From: a virus
Lineage: Duplodnaviria; Heunggongvirae; Uroviricota; Caudoviricetes
Length of the DNA: 19,981 bases
Direction: 5' to 3' (one strand)
IMG/VR virus record: IMGVR_UViG_2671180422_000005
Below are positions 2,621-13,486 of this stretch, piece by piece (position 1 is the first letter of the stretch; the number at the start of each line of letters is the position of its first letter). A program made the position numbers and the translations under genes. The notes under the pieces are model-generated. The model was not told where the DNA came from and searched no databases. It saw only the letters and a program-made list of their open reading frames with translations.

Positions 2621-3211
2621 ATGTCTCAAATTTTTGCTTACTGTCGGATATCAACGCTGGATCAGACCACCGAAAATCAACGCCGGGAAATCGAAAGTGC
2701 AGGTTTTAAAATCAAACCTCAGCAAATAATCGAAGAACACATTAGCGGCTCAGCAGCAACCAGTGAGCGTCCTGGTTTTAACCGGTTGCTTGCTCGCCTG
2801 AAATGTGGTGATCAATTGATTGTGACAAAACTGGATCGCCTTGGTTGTAATGCAATGGATATCAGGAAAACAGTGGAACAACTGACCGAAACAGGTATCA
2901 GAGTGCATTGCTTAGCATTGGGGGGCATTGACCTGACCAGTCCAACAGGAAAAATGATGATGCAAGTAATTTCAGCAGTCGCTGAATTTGAACGAGACCT
3001 TTTACTTGAACGCACTCATTCCGGGATAGTAAGAGCCCGCGGCGCAGGGAAACGTTTTGGTCGACCACCTGTGTTAAATGAAGAACAGAAACAGGCGGTA
3101 TTCGAACGAATTAAGTCAGGTGTAAGTATAAGTGCCATTGCCCGGGAATTCAAAACCTCGCGGCAAACCATTTTAAGAGCCAAAGCAAAACTTCAGACAC
3201 CTGACATATAA
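2621..3211 (+). CDS. pinQ: Serine recombinase, DNA invertase of the Pin/Gin/Hin/Cin family
   Basis: 196 aa; N-terminal catalytic motif YCRISTLDQ (active-site Ser10), C-terminal HTH ([18 protein letters not shown]); sequence as recalled for PinQ/PinR. Confidence 0.9.
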
Positions 3212-3308: not shown

Positions 3309-3444
3309 CTACGGCAGTGCTGGCCATTCAATATCCTGTGCAGTTGACGTATCAACACGGTTCAGCAATACCCGATACTTTTTCCATGCTTCCAGCAACG
3401 AGATTTCTTCCTCCGTTGCAATTTCCAGATCTGCAGCATCCTGA
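3309..3444 (-). pseudogene. 3' remnant (about 45 codons) of a tail fiber assembly gene tfa, fused to gene A
   Basis: Minus-strand frame reads ...[43 protein letters not shown]-stop, the conserved C-terminus of lambdoid Tfa proteins; no upstream Tfa sequence remains. Confidence 0.55.
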
Positions 3445-5337
3445 ATCTGCCAGTGTTTTCTTGTTGGTTGCTGCACCATCCTCTTCCTGCAGGCTCGCCA
3501 GCAGTGCACTGAGATCCAGCTGCCAGCGGGAAATACTGATGCGCAGCGCCGCCAGCGCATAAACGAAGCAGTCGAGTGCCTCATTGCGTCGCTTTTTGCT
3601 GTCCCACAGTATTTTTTTCCTGCCATCCACCCATTTTTCGACCTGCTCTTCAGCAGTCAGCTGCTGCGCTTCGGTCAGATCAAAAATATCCGGGTTATTC
3701 GGGAAGTGAACGGCACCGGGAAGCGGTTCATCCCCTTCCGGCGTCAGTGTGAAGCGGTTATAAATCTGCTCTTTCGCGGTATCCGTACCGATTTCGGTAA
3801 GGTAAACCCCGTTTTTGTTTCGCTTACGTGGCATGCTGGCCACCGGCTTTCCGTAGACGGATGCCCCTTTAATGGGGATCACCCGGAACAGCCCATGTTT
3901 TTTCGAGCGTTCATACACAATGGTCGGGTCAATCCCGCCAGTATCCCAGCAGATACGGGATACCGACATTTCTGCACCATTCCGGCGGGTATAGGTTTTA
4001 TTGATGGCCTCATCCACACGCAGCAGCGTCTGTTCATCGTCGTGGCGACCCATAATAATCTGCCGGTCAATCAGCCAGCTTTCCTCACCCGGCCCCCATC
4101 CCCATACGCGCATTTCGTAGCGGTCCAGCTGGGAGTCGATACCGGCGGTCAGGTAAGCCACACGGTCAGGAACGGGCGCTGAATAATGCTCTTTCCGCTC
4201 CGCCATCACCTCAGCATCCGGACGTTCGCCGATTTTCGCTTCCCATGTCTCACCGAGCGTGGTGTTTACGAAGGTTTTACGTTTTCCCGTATCCCCTTTC
4301 GTTTTCATCCAGTCTTTGACAATCTGCACCCAGGTGGTGAACGGGCTGTACGCCGTCCAGATGTGAAAGGTCACGCTGTCCGGCGGCTCAATCTCTTCAC
4401 CGGATGACGAAAACCAGAGAATGCCATCACGGGTCCAGATCCCGGTCTTTTCGCAGATATAACGGGCATCAGTGAAGTCCAGCTCCTGCTGGCGGATGAC
4501 GCAGGCATTATGCTCGCAGAGATAAAACACGCTGGAGGGGTCATCCGGCGTCCATTTGAGGCCAAACGGCGTCTCTTTGTCGCCAAATTTAAGATACTGC
4601 TCCTCCCCGCAGTGCGGGCAGGCAACATGAAAACGCATAAAATGCAGGGATTCACTGGCTGCACGCTCAATCTGGCAGGTGCCTCTCACTTTGGGCGTGG
4701 AGCCACGGATGGACTTTGGCCAGACCGAGCCTTCAATACGTTTGTCGCCAAGGAACGTCGGAGAGCCTTCCTGTTCAATATCCTCATCAAAGGCAGCAAG
4801 TTCATCATAACCCGCCACATCCACCGACTTTTCACGGTAGTTTTTTGCCGCTTTACCGCCCAGGCACCAGAAGCCACGACCATTGGAAAAACGCTTCATA
4901 GTGAGCGTGTTATCCCGGTGCTTTTTGCCATACCACGGAGCCAGCGCCAGCAGCGACGGAATATCGCGGATGGTCGGCTCAACGTGGGTTTTCATAAAGT
5001 TCTCGGCATCACCATCCGTCGGCAACCAGATAAGGGTGTTGCGCTGCTTATGCTCTATAAAGTAGGCATAAACACCCAGCAGCATTTTGGAATAACCGAC
5101 ACGGGCAGACTTCACCACATTCACCTCACGGATGTAGTCGCTGCCCATCGCATTCATGATGGCCCGCTGAAAGGGCAGTGTTTCCCAGCGCCCTTCCTGG
5201 TATGCGGATTCTTTCGGGAGATAGTAATTAGCATCCGCCCATTCAACGGCGGTCTGTGGCTCCGGCCTGAACAGTGAGCGAAGCCCGGCGCGGACAAAAT
5301 GCCGCAGCCTGTTAACCTGACTGTTCGATATATTCAC
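3352..5337 (-). CDS. A: Terminase large subunit gpA-like, 661 aa, with the last about 10 lambda residues replaced by 30 unrelated residues
   Basis: Collinear with lambda gpA from [19 protein letters not shown] through ...[11 protein letters not shown]; diverges after coordinate 3445 into ...[30 protein letters not shown], which is tfa-derived DNA read in another frame. Confidence 0.9.
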
Positions 5338-5857
5338 TCAGCAACCCCGGTATCAGTTCATCCAGCGCGGCTGCTTTGTTCATGGCTTTGATGATATCCC
5401 GTTTCAGGAAATCAACATGTCGGTTTTCCAGTTCCGGAAAACGCCGCTGCACCGACAGGGGGATCCCGTCGAGAATACTGGCAATTTCACCTGCGATCCG
5501 CGACAGCACGAAAGTACAGAATGCGGTTTCCACCACTTCAGCGGAGTCTCTGGCATTTTTCAGCTCCTGTGCGTCGGCCTGCGCACGCGTAAGTCGATGG
5601 CGTTCGTACTCAATAGTCCCTGGCTGGAGATCTGTCTCGCTGGCCTGCCGCAGTTCTTCAACTTCCCGGCGCAGCTTTTCGTTCTCAATTTCAGCATCCC
5701 TTTCGGCATACCATCTTATAACGGCGGCAGAGTCATAAAGCACCTCATTACCCTTGCCACCGCCTCGCAGAACGGGCATTCCCTGTTCCTGCCAGTTCTG
5801 AATGGTACGGATACTCGCACCGAAAATGTCAGCCAGCTGCTTTTTGTTGACTTCCAT
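5312..5857 (-). CDS. nu1: Terminase small subunit Nu1 (181 aa)
   Basis: MEVNKKQLADIFGASIRTIQNWQEQGMPV... matches lambda Nu1 as recalled; 3' end overlaps the A start as in lambda; ATG at 5855-5857. Confidence 0.9.
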   Translation of the reverse strand: MEVNKKQLADIFGASIRTIQNWQEQGMPVLRGGGKGNEVLYDSAAVIRWYAERDAEIENEKLRREVEELRQASETDLQPGTIEYERHRLTRAQADAQELKNARDSAEVVETAFCTFVLSRIAGEIASILDGIPLSVQRRFPELENRHVDFLKRDIIKAMNKAAALDELIPGLLSEYIEQSG

Positions 5858-6947: not shown

Positions 6948-7051
6948 ACCATAACGTCCGGCTTCTCTCACTCCTGAGCCGGACTGCATTGGTTTAATAA
7001 AAACCATCAACAATTGTGATTTAGATATTCGGAACCATTCAAATATAACAA

Positions 7052-7072
7052 AACCCCGTAAAAACGAGGTTT
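7052..7072 (-). terminator. Intrinsic terminator downstream of gnsB
   Basis: Minus-strand RNA AACCUCGU-UUUU-ACGGGGUU (8-bp stem with one G-U pair) followed by UUGUUAUAUUU. Confidence 0.5.
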
Positions 7073-7098
7073 ATGGATAAATTTTATTATTGAATACA

Positions 7099-7275
7099 TC
7101 AGATTAAATTAATCTTGACATCATAGCTTTCAAGACCCGTCATTTTTTCCCGTGCGGTAAACTGAATACTGGTAACTTCTTTCCCGGTCTTTTTCTTAAG
7201 TTCAATAATTTTTTTTGTTATATATTCAGAAATATCTGCTTCTGCTTTTGTTTTTAAGTTTTCAATATTCATCAT
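7099..7275 (-). CDS. gnsB: GnsA/GnsB-family small protein (58 aa)
   Basis: Below the ORF-track cutoff; hand translation MMNIENLKTKAEADISEYITKKIIELKKKTGKEVTSIQFTAREKMTGLESYDVKINLI; AAAAGAGGAA Shine-Dalgarno immediately upstream of the ATG at 7273-7275. Confidence 0.75.
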   Translation of the reverse strand: MMNIENLKTKAEADISEYITKKIIELKKKTGKEVTSIQFTAREKMTGLESYDVKINLI

Positions 7276-7443
7276 TTCCTCTTTTAGTCTGTTATGACTT
7301 TCCAGTTACACAGTAAGTCGATTATATGGTGCAAACGTGTAAAAGATAAGATGAAACATCGCAATAATCAACATACGATAGTCTAAATTTTACACAAACA
7401 GACAAAGAGAATTTTCCTGAATTATCAATGCAATAGCATCAAA

Positions 7444-7674
7444 TCAACTCAAGAGCCTTATTGCTGCTTCCAGAATTTCTTCTGAAGTAACATGTCGATC
7501 CGCGGCTACATAAATGACTTTATGATCTCCGGTCAGAGATGGAAACCCTGCGGCCATTACAGTAAGGTGTGTTTTTTCGCCATTTGGATATTCACGCATG
7601 ATGGTGTTAACTCCAGTCATCGCTGGCACTACCACTGCTGGTTCAGAGTTAAAAAAAACTATGATTTTTTTCAT
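7444..7674 (-). CDS. Hypothetical 76-aa protein between cspI and gnsB
   Basis: ORF-track frame 7444-7716 opens with TTG; the first ATG gives MKKIIVFFNSEPAVVVPAMTGVNTIMREYPNGEKTHL...; weak Shine-Dalgarno; sits where K-12 Qin has ynfN and the paralogous chromosomal locus has ymcE. Confidence 0.45.
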   Translation of the reverse strand: MKKIIVFFNSEPAVVVPAMTGVNTIMREYPNGEKTHLTVMAAGFPSLTGDHKVIYVAADRHVTSEEILEAAIRLLS

Positions 7675-7710
7675 GATGTTACCGTAGTATGTGAGTATCC
7701 ATCGAATAGA

Positions 7711-7738
7711 CACCAAGCAAAAAAGCTCCCGAAGGAGC
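7711..7738 (-). terminator. Candidate intrinsic terminator downstream of cspI
   Basis: Minus-strand GCUCC-UUCG-GGAGC hairpin followed by UUUUUUGCUUGG. Confidence 0.45.
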
Positions 7739-7945
7739 CTTCATTTTCACTTTTTTAAATCCAACGACAGACGGCTGGCATTTAAGTATTGTGAAATATT
7801 ATCAAATGTAATCATCATTGATTTACAAAAGATACATTTTGCCCCGAAAGGATTCATGTCAGAAACATCAAAAGATGATGTTCTATACTGGGAACCATGA
7901 CAACACGGGCATCTAAAGTGAATATGGTTTGTAATATTGTCTACC

Positions 7946-8158
7946 TCAAAGCGCCACTACATGAACAGCGGCAGGACCTTTAGGTCCGTTCTCAATACCA
8001 AATTCAACTTCCTGATTCTCAGTTAATGTTTTGAAATCGTTGCTCTGAATTGCTGAGAAATGGACAAACACATCTTTGCTGCCATCTTTCGGCGTGATGA
8101 AACCAAAACCTTTTTCAGGGTTAAACCATTTCACTAAACCAGTCATTTTGTTAGACAT
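7946..8158 (-). CDS. cspI: Cold shock protein CspI (CspA family, 70 aa)
   Basis: [53 protein letters not shown]... with RNP1/RNP2 motifs; long leader upstream typical of csp genes. Confidence 0.95.
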
Positions 8159-8520
8159 AATTATTACCTTTTGAAGAAATTAGCCCTTGGGCAGAATGGT
8201 CCGAAAAAAAATATCAGAGAGAAAAACCAACAAGGAAATCTCAAGAGGTACAAATAATAAAATTATAACAATGACTGCTTCAGATAAATTTGTAACAAAC
8301 CAGAACACCATTAACGCATGATTAACCACCCATAGCAAGGATTACTTTTGTAAAGAAAAACACAGCAATGAAAGAATAGCTTTATTTATTAATAAAACGT
8401 GTCATTCTGATTAAGACCTTTTATCTTACCCTTAAGATTTCAGGAATTTTGGCTCATGGAAGAGTCCTTTTTATTTAAATTTTACATTCCGCGATGTAAA
8501 TGTTCCGATTTAATATTACC

Positions 8521-9544
<1,024 letters not shown>

Positions 9545-10295: not shown

Positions 10296-10466
10296 ATGTC
10301 AGAACGTAAAAACTCAAAATCACGCCGTAATTATCTCGTTAAATGTTCCTGCCCAAACTGCACCCAAGAGTCAGAACACAGTTTTTCAAGAGTACAAAAA
10401 GGTGCCCTTTTGATCTGCCCTCATTGCAACAAAGTATTCCAGACAAATCTTAAAGCTGTAGCCTGA
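10296..10466 (+). CDS. ynfU: Small zinc-ribbon protein (56 aa), YnfU-like
   Basis: MSERKNSKSRRNYLVKCSCPNCTQESEHSFSRVQKGALLICPHCNKVFQTNLKAVA; two CxxC pairs; AGGAAA 5 nt upstream of the ATG; opposite strand to the surrounding late genes. Confidence 0.65.
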   Translation: MSERKNSKSRRNYLVKCSCPNCTQESEHSFSRVQKGALLICPHCNKVFQTNLKAVA

Positions 10467-10548: not shown

Positions 10549-10829
10549 GAGATTGTGGTGCTTTTTGTGGGAGTCATCCACTTACGCACTTTGTTTTGCC
10601 ATGCCAGCAGTTAGCTTCTGCTGTAAAACTATTCATGCAGCAAACCTGCACTTCACCACAATGGTTAGCATACTTTTCCTGATTAAGATTTTGCCAAATA
10701 TGCTAGCCATTGTTTCATGTATTGGACCTCCTTACTTTTTATTAAAGAGATCCAATATTCACTACTCTGTCCGTATCTCTACTCAGGCATCAGCCTTCTT
10801 CGTTATCGTATACAGACGAGCGATGAATT

Positions 10830-11045
10830 TTAATCAGTAATGATGACATTTGCTGCTGCAGGACCTTTAGCACCACTCTCTATAGAGAAGGTAACCTTTT
10901 GACCTTCAAATAAGGTTCGATAATTATCATTCTGAATCGCAGAAAAATGCACAAACACATCTTTACTACCATCAACAGGAGAAATAAAGCCGAAACCTTT
11001 ATCAGCGTTAAACCATTTTACTAAACCAGTCATTTTATTTGACAT
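10830..11045 (-). CDS. cspB: Cold shock protein CspB (CspA family, 71 aa)
   Basis: [53 protein letters not shown]...; AAGGAA Shine-Dalgarno. Confidence 0.95.
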
Positions 11046-11345
11046 TCTACATTCCTTAACTTGAGCCTTTCGGCATAAATGGTTTGCATAACAGAAACGA
11101 CTTCGTACTTAATTGGAGAGACTCAAAGAAGGAATAAGTGAATAACACCTGAAATGAGAACTGCTTTAGTAAACTACTTCGTATATCGTCTGTTCTTCAA
11201 ACCGACGCAATCATTAACGCATAGTTGAACATATGAAGCAATGTTTATTTTAGACATCCAGCCATCTTCAACCCCATCAAAAAACTATAGCTTTCTTCAG
11301 GAACGTGTGTATAGTGCGCCAAGTTATCAGTATTAAGGAATTTTT

Positions 11346-12745: not shown

Positions 12746-13486
12746 TTACGCCAGTACGCCAATTGTCAGCGCGCGATCGATAAAACGAAATATCAGCTCC
12801 AGTTGGGAGCCATACTTATCTTCAAATGCCACTGTATCCGTATGCAGCTCGTTGTGATGCTTTCTGCACAAAGGCAACACAAAGAGATCATGTGCTTTTG
12901 TTCCCATTCCGCCCTGCCCGTGACCAATCAGATGATGCGGATCGTCGGCTGGCATACCGCAGCAAGCACACGGCTGTGTCTTAACCCAACGTGTGTATTT
13001 CTCCTTAACCCAGCGGCGACGTTTAGGCAGCTTCATGAAAGATTCCGGAGACTCTGGATCAACGGTGATGCTTACCACCGTCTTTTCCTGTGGTGATTTT
13101 TGTTGCTGGTGGGCGTAAGGCAACGGTGCAAGATTTTTTGTGCGTTGTTTCAATATGCTGGTGGCGGTCTGCTCTCCCGGTACGATGTCGCTTTCGCGGT
13201 ACACCGAGCAGATTTTTTCCGCTGGTAATCCCAGCGAACGACGCGATACAGCCTCAGGTAGTGCATCCACCACCTGATTGCAGACCGCCCACCAGGATAA
13301 TTCAGCCAAAGATAATTCCCGCTCCTGCGTACCGCTTATTGCGTGACGGATGACGTCAATCACCCATGCTGTCAGATTTTGTTGAGCAAGCAGCTCCAGT
13401 GATTCCGATGTCTGGTCACGCAGTTGGTTGTCGCAGTGCCAGCACAACACCATTGCGCCGGTATTCATCATAAACTTTGGGATCAT
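12746..13486 (-). CDS. ydfU: DUF968-family protein with HNH-like Cys/His motif
   Basis: 246-aa ORF; C-terminal CACCG...DPHHLIGHG...LPLCRKHHNELH; ATG at 13486 has GGGGAG upstream but lies 71 nt inside dicC; shorter than the K-12 YdfU length I recall. Confidence 0.75.
   Translation of the reverse strand: MIPKFMMNTGAMVLCWHCDNQLRDQTSESLELLAQQNLTAWVIDVIRHAISGTQERELSLAELSWWAVCNQVVDALPEAVSRRSLGLPAEKICSVYRESDIVPGEQTATSILKQRTKNLAPLPYAHQQQKSPQEKTVVSITVDPESPESFMKLPKRRRWVKEKYTRWVKTQPCACCGMPADDPHHLIGHGQGGMGTKAHDLFVLPLCRKHHNELHTDTVAFEDKYGSQLELIFRFIDRALTIGVLA

Follow-up and report, generated by a model that had tools for sequence, protein, structure and literature searches.

The cspI-ynfQ-ynfR-ynfN-gnsB cassette of a Qin-like Escherichia coli prophage and its relation to the chromosomal cspG locus

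A cold-shock gene set in the late region

The closest described counterpart of the locus considered here is the Qin prophage of Escherichia coli K-12, which carries cspI, ynfQ, ynfR, ynfN and gnsB (b1552, b4724, b4749, b1551, b1550). A chromosomal locus with paralogous members carries cspG, ymcF, ymcE and gnsA in that order on one strand. Two kinds of genetic unit also bear comparison: the morons downstream of the lysis genes of lambdoid phages, which are late-region accessory genes with their own regulatory signals and terminators and a likely benefit to the lysogen, and type II toxin-antitoxin modules, such as relBE of K-12 Qin, which consist of two small genes on the same strand of a mobile element.

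The window, the whole stretch of 19,981 nucleotides that was analysed, comes from a virus of the Caudoviricetes (IMG/VR record IMGVR_UViG_2671180422_000005). Judged by annotation and sequence identity, positions 7099-8158 hold a previously annotated cold-shock cassette, cspI-ynfQ-ynfR-ynfN-gnsB, from a Qin-like prophage of E. coli. This segment, whose exact bounds are the stop codon of gnsB and the start codon of cspI, is 99.8-100% identical to K-12-type Qin and shares its gene set, order and strand; many E. coli Qin-type prophages match the cassette DNA at 100% identity. Both the genes and their arrangement are already known: each gene has an annotation in E. coli K-12, and RefSeq annotation shows the paralogous orders. 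The features are as follows.

7919-8304, minus strand: cspA-type thermoregulator (Rfam RF01766), the long cspI 5′ leader, running into the coding region
7946-8158, minus strand: cspI, cold-shock protein of 70 aa (Pfam CSD, 1.6e-31; RefSeq cspI)
7747-7935, minus strand: ynfQ, YmcF-like protein of 62 aa with CxxC...CxxC motifs (RefSeq; Pfam PF23641)
7719-7741, minus strand: intrinsic-terminator hairpin, AAGGCUCC-UUCG-GGAGCUUU and a U-tract, just past the ynfQ stop (core 7739-7725)
7679-7744, minus strand: ynfR, small ORF of 21 aa (RefSeq annotation)
7444-7674, minus strand: ynfN, conserved small protein of 76 aa (PGAP 'protein YnfN'), weak Shine-Dalgarno ACGG
7273-7443, minus strand: ynfN-gnsB spacer of 171 nt, with a perfect TATAAT (7326-7321), a weak -35 and an AAGAGG Shine-Dalgarno
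7099-7272, minus strand: gnsB, GnsA/GnsB family protein of 57 aa (Pfam PF08178, 3.3e-35)
7041-7072, minus strand: intrinsic terminator past gnsB from a terminator scan, with a 9-bp stem, AAACCTCGT/ACGGGGTTT, then a T-rich tail

A sequence-only reading of this DNA had described a triad of cspI, a 76-aa ORF and gnsB on one strand. These three ORFs are present at the coordinates listed and in the order described, but RefSeq annotates five genes in the unit, all on the minus strand, with ynfQ and ynfR between cspI and the 76-aa ORF. The placement of the set in the path of late transcription was correct: the cassette lies on the late-gene (minus) strand, flanked by the Rz gene (8521-9018) and nohA/terminase (3352-5857), and the isolated phage PhiR42_1 has the same cassette between Rz and Nu1/A. 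The prophage in the window differs from K-12 Qin on its packaging side, which is fuller and retains an intact large terminase gene, and in having no rem-hokD-relBE-flxA segment.

The two genes at the head of the cassette are readily assigned. The leader match at 7919-8304 scores 112.8 bits (E 4e-29), the gathering score being 78, and the four related loci tested (L004, L010, L013 and L014) have a cspA-type leader ahead of their csp gene as well. CspI belongs to the cold-shock domain family (PF00313, 1.6e-31), is 79% identical to CspG and is recognised by the NCBIfam CspG/CspA models at 1e-40 and 1.8e-37, each slightly under its curated cut-off; the gene has a dN/dS of 0.04 against L004. Read directly from the codons, ynfQ starts with ATT 10 nt past the cspI stop, behind a GAGG Shine-Dalgarno. 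Its 62-aa length, paired CxxC motifs and place directly behind a csp gene identify the product as YmcF-like, with 66% identity to YmcF over the full length, an ATT start in both paralogues and a dN/dS of 0.12; the PF23641 match falls on the C-terminal 36-aa ORF.

With its position between lysis and packaging genes, and with its own cspA-type leader and terminators, the cassette fits the description of a lambdoid late-region moron. Its cargo is not a virulence or exclusion factor, as in other such morons, but a cold-shock set: a Csp, small proteins and a lipid regulator. We think it probable that the cassette is a cold-shock 'moron' of a Qin-type lambdoid prophage, in which cspI and ynfQ are followed by a leaky terminator within ynfR, then by ynfN, a spacer and gnsB.

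ynfN, ymcE and the chromosomal cspG locus

The cassette had also been likened to a mirror of the chromosomal cspG locus. This holds for the csp gene, the YmcF-like gene, the hairpin and the gns gene, which are paralogous, but fails for the middle genes, which are not homologous; as far as the sequences go, the two loci are paralogous at their ends only and the chromosomal copy is without ynfN. DNA homology breaks off past the hairpin common to both and picks up again ~20 nt ahead of the start of gns, and in place of ynfN the cspG locus has a 195-nt spacer under the ymcE ORF. A homologous hairpin lies past ymcF in the chromosome and in locus L206, and ynfR and ymcE both cross its 3′ arm in the same frame, reading G-A-F. 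A protein match between YnfR and YmcE was sought by BLASTP and none was obtained, so that their relation, seen by DNA alignment and codon reading, is positional only. The loci differ in distribution as well: of 5426 complete E. coli genomes, 5414 carry ymcE-gnsA, a core locus, and 2140 carry ynfN, which is accessory.

The expected likeness of the 76-aa product to YmcE did not materialise. BLASTP gave no alignment with E ≤ 100, a YnfN HMM built from 52 sequences and run against YmcE and the six frames of the chromosomal spacer scored 0.8 bits on YmcE, no better than on the other frames, and YnfN did not match Pfam PF15939 (YmcE_antitoxin), which YmcE itself matches at 1.6e-56. We rejected remote homology between the two, the BLASTP, HMM and Pfam results all being noise and the short FFN and LT matches in a MAFFT alignment not being significant; the 76-aa length that they have in common is a coincidence. 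Descent of ymcE from a decayed ynfN was discarded too, for no intermediate was found, and a spacer homologous to ymcE DNA, not to ynfN, is present in L206, where the ORF is not intact. ymcE is restricted to Escherichia/Shigella, and its dN/dS of 0.92, a value of neutral evolution from 19 substitutions only, compares with 0.02-0.11 for its neighbours. It looks non-coding and behaves like a leader, and would consist of the hairpin that it has in common with ynfR together with the gnsA leader.

The 76-aa product does align with YnfN, since it is YnfN itself (RefSeq/PGAP model WP_000720962.1), and records of 100% identity carry a ynfN annotation in this position. ynfN is a genuine gene by the measure of its substitutions, because dN/dS is 0.10 (with a second value of 0.18). 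The protein is conserved at full length in 62 species, with homologues of 75-78 aa; the 51-aa YnfN of the MG1655 annotation corresponds to the C-terminal part of the 76-aa protein and is apparently truncated. A confident AF2 model (pLDDT 87.5) is of a small beta/alpha protein, with five strands and a C-terminal helix. We found no relatives of YnfN by fold or family except PHROG 3425 (4.9e-53), a family of unknown function, to which it belongs, and a search of 1.84 billion representative proteins with the YnfN HMM gave only 46 matches at E ≤ 0.001, with no annotated superfamily evident. A literature search found no paper on a function for YnfN.

Of the 62 species loci, which are enterobacterial, 56 have a same-strand csp gene upstream of ynfN, the commonest neighbour; 19 have a gns gene downstream, and 43 are without one. 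The arrangements include csp-ymcF-ynfN-gns, csp-ymcF-ynfN, csp-ynfN, ynfN-gns and ynfN alone, to which scans centred on gns added ynfN-STnc100-gns and gns alone. Units in which a csp gene, with or without a YmcF-like gene, precedes a same-strand YnfN homologue of 44-65% identity are found in Enterobacter, Klebsiella, Leclercia, Scandinavium, Kluyvera and others and in phage PHB10. They resemble the cassette in the cspA-type leader of those tested and differ from it in lacking gns and ynfR, and often the YmcF-like gene; a divergent cspH/cspF-like gene is often upstream, and several lie in chromosomal islands rather than prophage late regions. In distant loci that have a YmcF-like gene and are without gns, ynfN mostly follows the YmcF-like gene by 35-98 nt; one locus has 153 nt, and only there is a terminator detectable between the units. 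YnfN, a conserved small protein, stands on its own and is usually partnered by the csp/ymcF unit. Its steady association with cold-shock csp genes, together with its being a real conserved protein, makes it worth including in a screen for cold-adaptation phenotypes.

These surveys bear on another account of the cassette, according to which unrelated small morons were gathered by recombination in a permissive slot between lysis and packaging genes and have no common regulation or function, the likeness to the cspG locus reflecting common descent of two modules. The modules do shuffle among the 62 species loci and in the gns-centred scans, genes for YnfU-like zinc ribbons turn up there repeatedly, in that very slot, and the terminases beside the cassette vary between hosts. 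A haphazard assembly is nevertheless hard to square with a csp-(ymcF)-ynfN unit that 56 of 62 species keep, its gaps mostly short and without a detected terminator, with the co-regulation of YnfR and of the cspI/ynfQ/ynfN trio described below, or with the fact that the characterised members are all cold-related (the CspI leader, YnfR induction, and Gns with unsaturated fatty acids). We consider this account unlikely.

gnsB and the toxin-antitoxin label

The ORF assigned to gnsB is real, although the 58 aa first given for it become 57, the extra ATG being too near the ribosome-binding site. Aligned with GnsA, the product shows 67% identity; the GnsAB profile is matched at 3.3e-35 and the solved GnsA structures (PDB 4XO1/4XO2) at about 1e-19 to 1e-20, which places it in the family, and dN/dS is 0.07. 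A preprint credits gnsA and gnsB with raising unsaturated fatty acids and their overexpression with suppressing fabA6 and a secG null, in both cases after Sugai 2001 (bioRxiv 10.1101/2024.03.27.586906).

Several observations suggest that gns is a module separate from ynfN. In essentially all E. coli GnsB-type loci ynfN is upstream of gns on the same strand, and so it is in 48 of 76 divergent prophage contigs; the other 28 have gns without ynfN, and the gns-proximal upstream region is retained in both of the two gns-only contigs examined. An AT-rich block ~85-95 nt ahead of the gns start aligned in 10 of 10 sequences compared, and the AGAGG ahead of gns is invariant in ten, including loci without ynfN. 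On this evidence the 171-nt spacer may supply gnsB with a promoter and leader of its own; a consensus promoter scan returned 2 sites where chance predicts 7, none of them ahead of ynfN or gnsB. Elsewhere the distance between ynfN and gns is 100-500 nt, and in prophages of Leclercia, Enterobacter and Silvania the two are split by the gene of an STnc100 sRNA, which has a terminator of its own. Since gns in prophages has ynfN upstream in the larger share of cases, some functional tie between the two may exist. Locus L196, a candidate case of gns without ynfN, was discarded as a probable chimeric metagenome contig that ends ~40 nt past gns; its upstream genes are unrelated ones, which we take to be Bacteroidetes-like.

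That gnsA and ymcE have been proposed as a toxin-antitoxin pair, as the sequence-only reading stated, is accurate: Pfam names PF08178 'GnsAB_toxin' and PF15939 'YmcE_antitoxin', and ymcE-gnsA is named among E. coli type II systems (PMC8484670). Its extension to the prophage would make GnsB a toxin and YnfN its neutraliser, as claimed for YmcE, with orphan YnfN tolerated elsewhere. Pfam and RefSeq do call the Gns family 'addiction module toxin', the same-strand order of ynfN and gns is common, the 43 of 62 species loci with ynfN and no gns would suit orphan antitoxins, and overexpression of gnsA and gnsB raised persister counts and lowered ATP (bioRxiv 10.1101/310961). Against this, the idea finds little support because the middle gene, ynfN, is unrelated to ymcE, and ymcE itself looks non-coding, is confined to one genus and is broken in L206. 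Type II modules are tight bicistrons, whereas here the two genes neither overlap nor are closely coupled, and elsewhere an sRNA gene and a terminator can separate them. Nor do they co-occur strictly: besides the 28 gns-only prophage contigs, ~3,270 complete E. coli genomes (~60%) have gnsA without any ynfN. Nothing in the YnfN model resembles the known folds of antitoxins or of DNA-binding proteins, such as the HTH, RHH or AbrB fold that is joined to a toxin-binding tail in type II antitoxins, and PADLOC, which covers defence systems, gave no match for YnfN, GnsB, YnfQ or YdfO. Finally, the putative toxin is tolerated alone: plasmid-borne gnsA or gnsB by itself even rescues cold-sensitive growth, in the case of pCAgnsB at 25-30 C (bioRxiv 10.1101/2024.03.27.586906), and gnsB alone was borne likewise in the persister study (bioRxiv 10.1101/310961). 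We therefore consider it highly unlikely that ynfN-gnsB is a toxin-antitoxin pair with YnfN as the antitoxin of GnsB. The outcome is corrective, in that there is only thin ground for labelling GnsA/GnsB and YmcE as 'addiction module toxin/antitoxin'.

Expression of the cassette and the hairpin ahead of ynfN

The middle ORF had been said to start right after a cspI terminator and to have a weak ribosome-binding site, so that its expression might depend on Q-mediated antitermination. The weak site (ACGG) is borne out and the hairpin is there, but it follows ynfQ rather than cspI and sits inside ynfR, which starts 2 nt past the ynfQ stop, crosses the terminator hairpin and ends 4 nt ahead of the ynfN ATG. 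Published data bear on the consequence. In K-12, cold shock strongly raises YnfR-SPA (PMC6001520), and because the ynfR ORF spans the hairpin, the terminator is read through there. AZT induces cspI 6.5-fold, ynfQ 5.9-fold and ynfN 5.8-fold, with matching LexA and SspA dependence (PMC11228462). Our literature search found no report on cold induction of ynfN or gnsB themselves.

In the cold-shock moron that we favour, cold would switch on the unit through the cspA-type thermosensing 5′ leader of cspI, which is demonstrable in the DNA, and would do so independently of phage Q, because cspI carries this leader itself. ynfQ would be translated from its ATT codon immediately behind cspI. The UUCG hairpin past ynfQ probably acts as a leaky terminator, an attenuator, which would end part of the transcripts, those that read through encoding ynfR and then ynfN. 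Read-through is backed by the published data cited above and we infer its manner: it may be favoured by antitermination of the Csp type or by ribosomes at work on ynfR. Translation of ynfN is probably coupled to that of ynfR, because its weak ribosome-binding site stands 4 nt past the ynfR stop. Behind its 171-nt spacer, gnsB probably has a promoter of its own too, and GnsB, which by published accounts raises unsaturated fatty acids, would suit low temperature. In an induced phage, the gene order suggests that Q-modified polymerase must traverse the cassette as well.

Could Q be the sole route? ynfN and gnsB would then be silent in the lysogen behind the ynfQ terminator and be made only by Q-modified polymerase in lytic growth. 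Late transcription must indeed cross the cassette, because it lies on the late strand between Rz and nohA/terminase, and a strong hairpin with a U-tract precedes ynfN, whose Shine-Dalgarno is weak. Yet in K-12, whose Qin is cryptic, cold induces YnfR, which is encoded across the terminator (PMC6001520), ynfN mRNA rises in parallel with that of cspI (PMC11228462), gnsB is among the genes up-regulated in growing cultures of UTI89, and csp-ymcF-ynfN loci occur in the chromosome, outside prophages, with no Q at all. These observations, together with the leader of cspI itself, contradict the proposed Q-dependence of the middle ORF, and expression by Q alone seems to us extremely improbable.

A more specific proposal, which we put forward tentatively and would not call probable, is that the UUCG terminator within ynfR is a cold- and translation-dependent attenuator that gates YnfN and possibly GnsB. 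In the cold, antitermination of the CspI type, ribosomes translating ynfR, or both would open the hairpin and let polymerase go on, and ribosomes that end ynfR would re-initiate at the poorly initiating ynfN 4 nt downstream. As a corollary, 'YmcE_antitoxin' would be no protein family; if the proposal is true, the name would denote the same attenuator and the conserved gnsA leader read as an ORF. The ynfR ORF is conserved in Escherichia only, and a conserved leader ORF over the terminator was looked for and not found outside that genus. The hairpin itself is kept across the Escherichia/Citrobacter cassettes, and the minus strand of 7660-7760 folds at -24.1 kcal/mol with z = -3.8. The ynfR hairpin is a putative small attenuator that can be put to the test.

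Gene content of the cassette

The interval at 7099-8158, all of whose relevant ORFs lie on the minus strand, is the already known Qin cassette, and the sequence-only reading of it made a real observation. Positions 6950-8350 match many E. coli chromosomes at 100% identity and are present in 2152 of 5426 complete genomes. The best-supported description is of an accessory cold-shock cassette whose internal terminator is leaky, and of YnfN as a conserved, functionally uncharacterised protein with a link to csp genes. Our additions are modestly new and corrective: ymcE is probably not a gene but a leader, YnfN is a 76-aa protein associated with csp genes, and the hairpin within ynfR is a candidate attenuator. 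A triad of cspI, a 76-aa ORF and gnsB had been proposed. These three are present on the minus strand, but the RefSeq annotation of an identical record, taken with that of MG1655, gives five genes, including two that had been missed (ynfQ and ynfR).

Features of the cassette (window positions)
7946-8158, minus strand: cspI (RefSeq)
7747-7935, minus strand: ynfQ, 62 aa, YmcF-like, ATT start (RefSeq)
7679-7744, minus strand: ynfR, 21 aa (RefSeq)
7444-7674, minus strand: ynfN, 76 aa (PGAP)
7099-7272, minus strand: gnsB, 57 aa (RefSeq)
7072-7051, minus strand: terminator past gnsB (terminator scan)

K-12 Qin and the window are 99.8-99.9% identical over their aligned parts. Unlike K-12 Qin, the window carries an intact 661-aa large terminase ORF (3352-5337) in place of stfQ/tfaQ (differing stretch 3446-5328) and lacks the rem-hokD-relBE-ydfV-flxA segment, with ydfU joining the dicC region directly (about 13459-13463). 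An ATT start is annotated in both ynfQ (7933-7935, minus strand) and its chromosomal paralogue ymcF (3185-3187 in L002, the K-12 cspG locus), about 10 nt past the csp stop, and the GAGG Shine-Dalgarno sequence of ynfQ/ymcF overlaps the csp gene end. This non-canonical start is conserved in both cold-shock paralogues and may have a regulatory role.

Comparison with the chromosomal cspG locus

The MG1655 order is cspH (opposite strand), then cspG, ymcF, ymcE and gnsA. Identity is 79% between CspI and CspG, 66% between YnfQ and YmcF, and 67% between GnsB and GnsA. DNA homology between Qin and the chromosome spans the csp leader, the csp gene, the YmcF-like gene and the terminator hairpin; after the hairpin the loci diverge, over about 430 nt in Qin versus about 190 nt on the chromosome, and come back into alignment some 20 nt ahead of the gns start. 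The proposed mirroring of this locus therefore holds for the flanks and terminator but not for the middle gene. The 76-aa product is YnfN itself, as annotated by RefSeq/PGAP in the identical record, and BLAST, profile and Pfam comparisons gave no similarity to YmcE: the two proteins do not align even at E ≤ 100, YmcE scores 0.8 bits against a 52-sequence YnfN profile, not above other reading frames of the same DNA, and YnfN has no match to PF15939 (YmcE_antitoxin), which YmcE matches at 1.6e-56. Read codon by codon, ynfR and ymcE both traverse the homologous hairpin, with a common frame in the 3′ arm and the U-tract (GGA GCY TTT TTK, read as G-A-F). From the DNA alignment and this shared frame, the positional counterpart of ymcE is ynfR plus the gnsA leader, not ynfN, and the common length of 76 aa is a coincidence.

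The annotated ymcE (L002 3348-3578; Pfam 'YmcE_antitoxin') is restricted to Escherichia and Shigella and includes the terminator hairpin of ymcF. When E. coli is compared with E. albertii (locus L246, 1501-1737), its dN/dS, based on 19 substitutions, is 0.92, or 0.90 for the part free of gene overlap, and the same species pair gives 0.09 for cspG, 0.11 for ymcF and 0.02 for gnsA. Because its dS is unusually low (only 0.08-0.10, versus 0.33-0.58 for neighbouring genes), ymcE looks constrained at the nucleotide level, not the protein level. On another enterobacterium's chromosome (L206), csp-ymcF-gns lies between artP-like and amiD-like genes, and the spacer (2707-3000) is homologous to ymcE DNA with no intact ORF. 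The neutral-like dN/dS, low dS, one-lineage range and broken ORF make YmcE, the 'antitoxin' half of the chromosomal pair, doubtful as a protein; judged from sequence, the annotated ymcE ORF is probably no gene but a conserved leader of gnsA.

YnfN and its association with csp and gns genes

Homologues of YnfN, 75-78 aa long, occur in 62 species-level Enterobacteriaceae genomes, and their invariant N-terminal residues (M1, K3 and V6-F7-F8-N9) support the 76-aa start. MG1655 YnfN (NC_000913.3, b1551; 7455-7610 in its Qin locus, L003) is annotated as 51 aa, the C-terminal two-thirds of the 76-aa protein. A confident AlphaFold2 model (pLDDT 87.5) has five strands and a C-terminal helix, and its first three strands are in the segment that the 51-aa annotation omits. 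Given these strands and the invariant N-terminus, the conserved protein is 76 aa and the MG1655 record appears to be N-terminally truncated. The dN/dS of ynfN is 0.10 when the window is compared with a Citrobacter-type cassette and 0.18 when it is compared with an E. coli variant, values similar to those of neighbouring genes. At E ≤ 0.001, YnfN matches only 46 cluster representatives in a set of 1.84 billion proteins; it is assigned to PHROG 3425, a family of unknown function, and PADLOC gave no match for it. Phages Tritos, 2H10, mEp460_ev081, HannyBb and PHB10 encode YnfN as well.

Neighbours of ynfN in 62 YnfN-centred species loci (tblastn)
csp-ymcF-ynfN-gns: 14 loci (Escherichia, Shigella, Citrobacter)
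csp-ymcF-ynfN, without gns: 19 loci
csp-ynfN: 23 loci, often with a divergent cspH/cspF-like gene upstream
ynfN-gns, without csp: 5 loci
ynfN alone: 1 locus

A csp gene thus precedes ynfN in 56 of the 62 loci, and gns lies downstream in 19. In distant loci with a YmcF-like gene and no gns, the gap to ynfN is mostly 35-98 nt and in one locus 153 nt, the only such gap in which the terminator scan found a terminator. The cspA-type leader is kept by the csp genes of 4/4 related loci tested. Upstream of the same csp gene, two related loci carry a second, divergent YnfN paralogue of 35-55% identity (L010 3037-3279; L013 725-952), so that a csp gene can have YnfN-like genes to either side of it. Small zinc-ribbon proteins resembling YnfU (PF23499) are repeatedly found beside csp/ynfN/gns cassettes in many prophages and islands, and their genes are a further member of the same shuffling small-gene set.

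YnfU-like genes
L004 2431-2604 and 5051-5215
L039 1777-1947
L072 1896-2093
L251 about 2600-2765
Window about 10296-10466, plus strand (coordinate mapping from K-12 Qin)

Among complete E. coli genomes, ymcE-gnsA is present in 5414/5426 and ynfN in 2140/5426; about 3,270 therefore have a Gns protein without YnfN. In E. coli GnsB-type loci, a highly redundant sample, ynfN is nearly always present, and of 76 viral contigs with enough upstream sequence in a divergent-Gns scan, 48 carry an upstream ynfN and the other 28 do not. Two gns loci that have lost ynfN (L251 and L284) keep about 130 nt upstream of gns, including an AT-rich block and an AGAGG ribosome-binding site. Aligning ten gns upstream sequences, two of them without ynfN, places the block about 85-95 nt before the start, with AGAGG invariant (window 7273-7400, minus strand); together they are a candidate gns promoter or leader. 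That loci without ynfN keep this gns-proximal region suggests that gns is a self-contained module. A metagenome contig with a GnsB gene and apparently no ynfN (L196 1-3213) is probably a chimeric assembly and was left out of the counts; its upstream genes look Bacteroidetes-like, including an RsmD-like methyltransferase, and it ends 40 nt past gns. In Leclercia, Enterobacter and Silvania prophages the ynfN-gns interval (430-500 nt) holds the sRNA gene STnc100 (RF02076) and its own terminator. STnc100 was located at L237 2617-2812, L241 2608-2810, L072 3286-3488 and L010 1661-1835, in L010 upstream of the csp gene, with 0 matches in the window.

Regulation, phage context and the toxin-antitoxin proposal

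An Rfam cspA thermoregulator match at 7919-8304 (minus strand; 112.8 bits versus a gathering score of 78) indicates that cspI has its own cold-responsive leader. Directly past the ynfQ stop lies a hairpin with a UUCG loop and, after it, a U-tract (7741-7719), and the surrounding 101-nt region has a folding energy of -24.1 kcal/mol (z = -3.8). The ynfR frame starts 2 nt past the ynfQ stop, crosses the hairpin and ends 4 nt short of the ATG of ynfN, whose Shine-Dalgarno sequence, ACGG, is weak, as had been noted. CspA-family proteins are transcription antiterminators, and antitermination of this type would be a plausible cold-specific way past the hairpin. Chromosomally tagged YnfR is strongly induced by cold shock (VanOrsdel et al., PMC6001520), and since the mRNA encoding it must include the hairpin, we infer that read-through occurs in K-12, where Qin is cryptic. 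Co-transcription of cspI, ynfQ and ynfN fits their similar induction by AZT (6.5-, 5.9- and 5.8-fold) and their like dependence on LexA and SspA (PMC11228462). In the ynfN-gnsB spacer the TATAAT at 7326-7321 is perfect and its -35 is weak; since the consensus scan did not call this site, a separate gnsB promoter there is a candidate only.

The cassette has Rz (8521-9018) on one side and nohA with the large terminase (3352-5857) on the other, all on one strand, with ydfO and ynfO in between on the opposite strand, and an identical cassette lies between Rz and Nu1/A in the isolated temperate phage PhiR42_1. Q-modified late transcription must therefore cross it. The suggested late-operon read-through path is correct as geography; the suggested dependence of the middle ORF on Q is contradicted by K-12 expression data, which show that Q is not required.

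The idea of a toxin-antitoxin-like module was not upheld: YnfN lacks similarity to YmcE, an outcome that the proposal itself had named as refuting it, and neither structure nor co-occurrence was that of such modules. Our literature search found no test of ynfN together with gnsB. An ASKA clone of gnsA or gnsB alone rescues the cold-sensitive growth of relA fadR cells (bioRxiv 10.1101/2024.03.27.586906); that paper cites Sugai 2001 for a rise in unsaturated fatty acids and for suppressing both fabA6(Ts) and a cold-sensitive secG null; and UTI89 with pBAD-gnsB is viable, with more persisters and less ATP (bioRxiv 10.1101/310961). Given this rescue and viability, the Gns data do not fit a classical lethal toxin, and mild growth effects are possible.

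A second, stronger cspA-thermoregulator match (10814-11206, minus strand; 158.8 bits) marks cspB, and cold-shock genes are unusually many in this prophage (cspB, cspF, ynfS, ydfK, cspI, ynfQ and ynfR).
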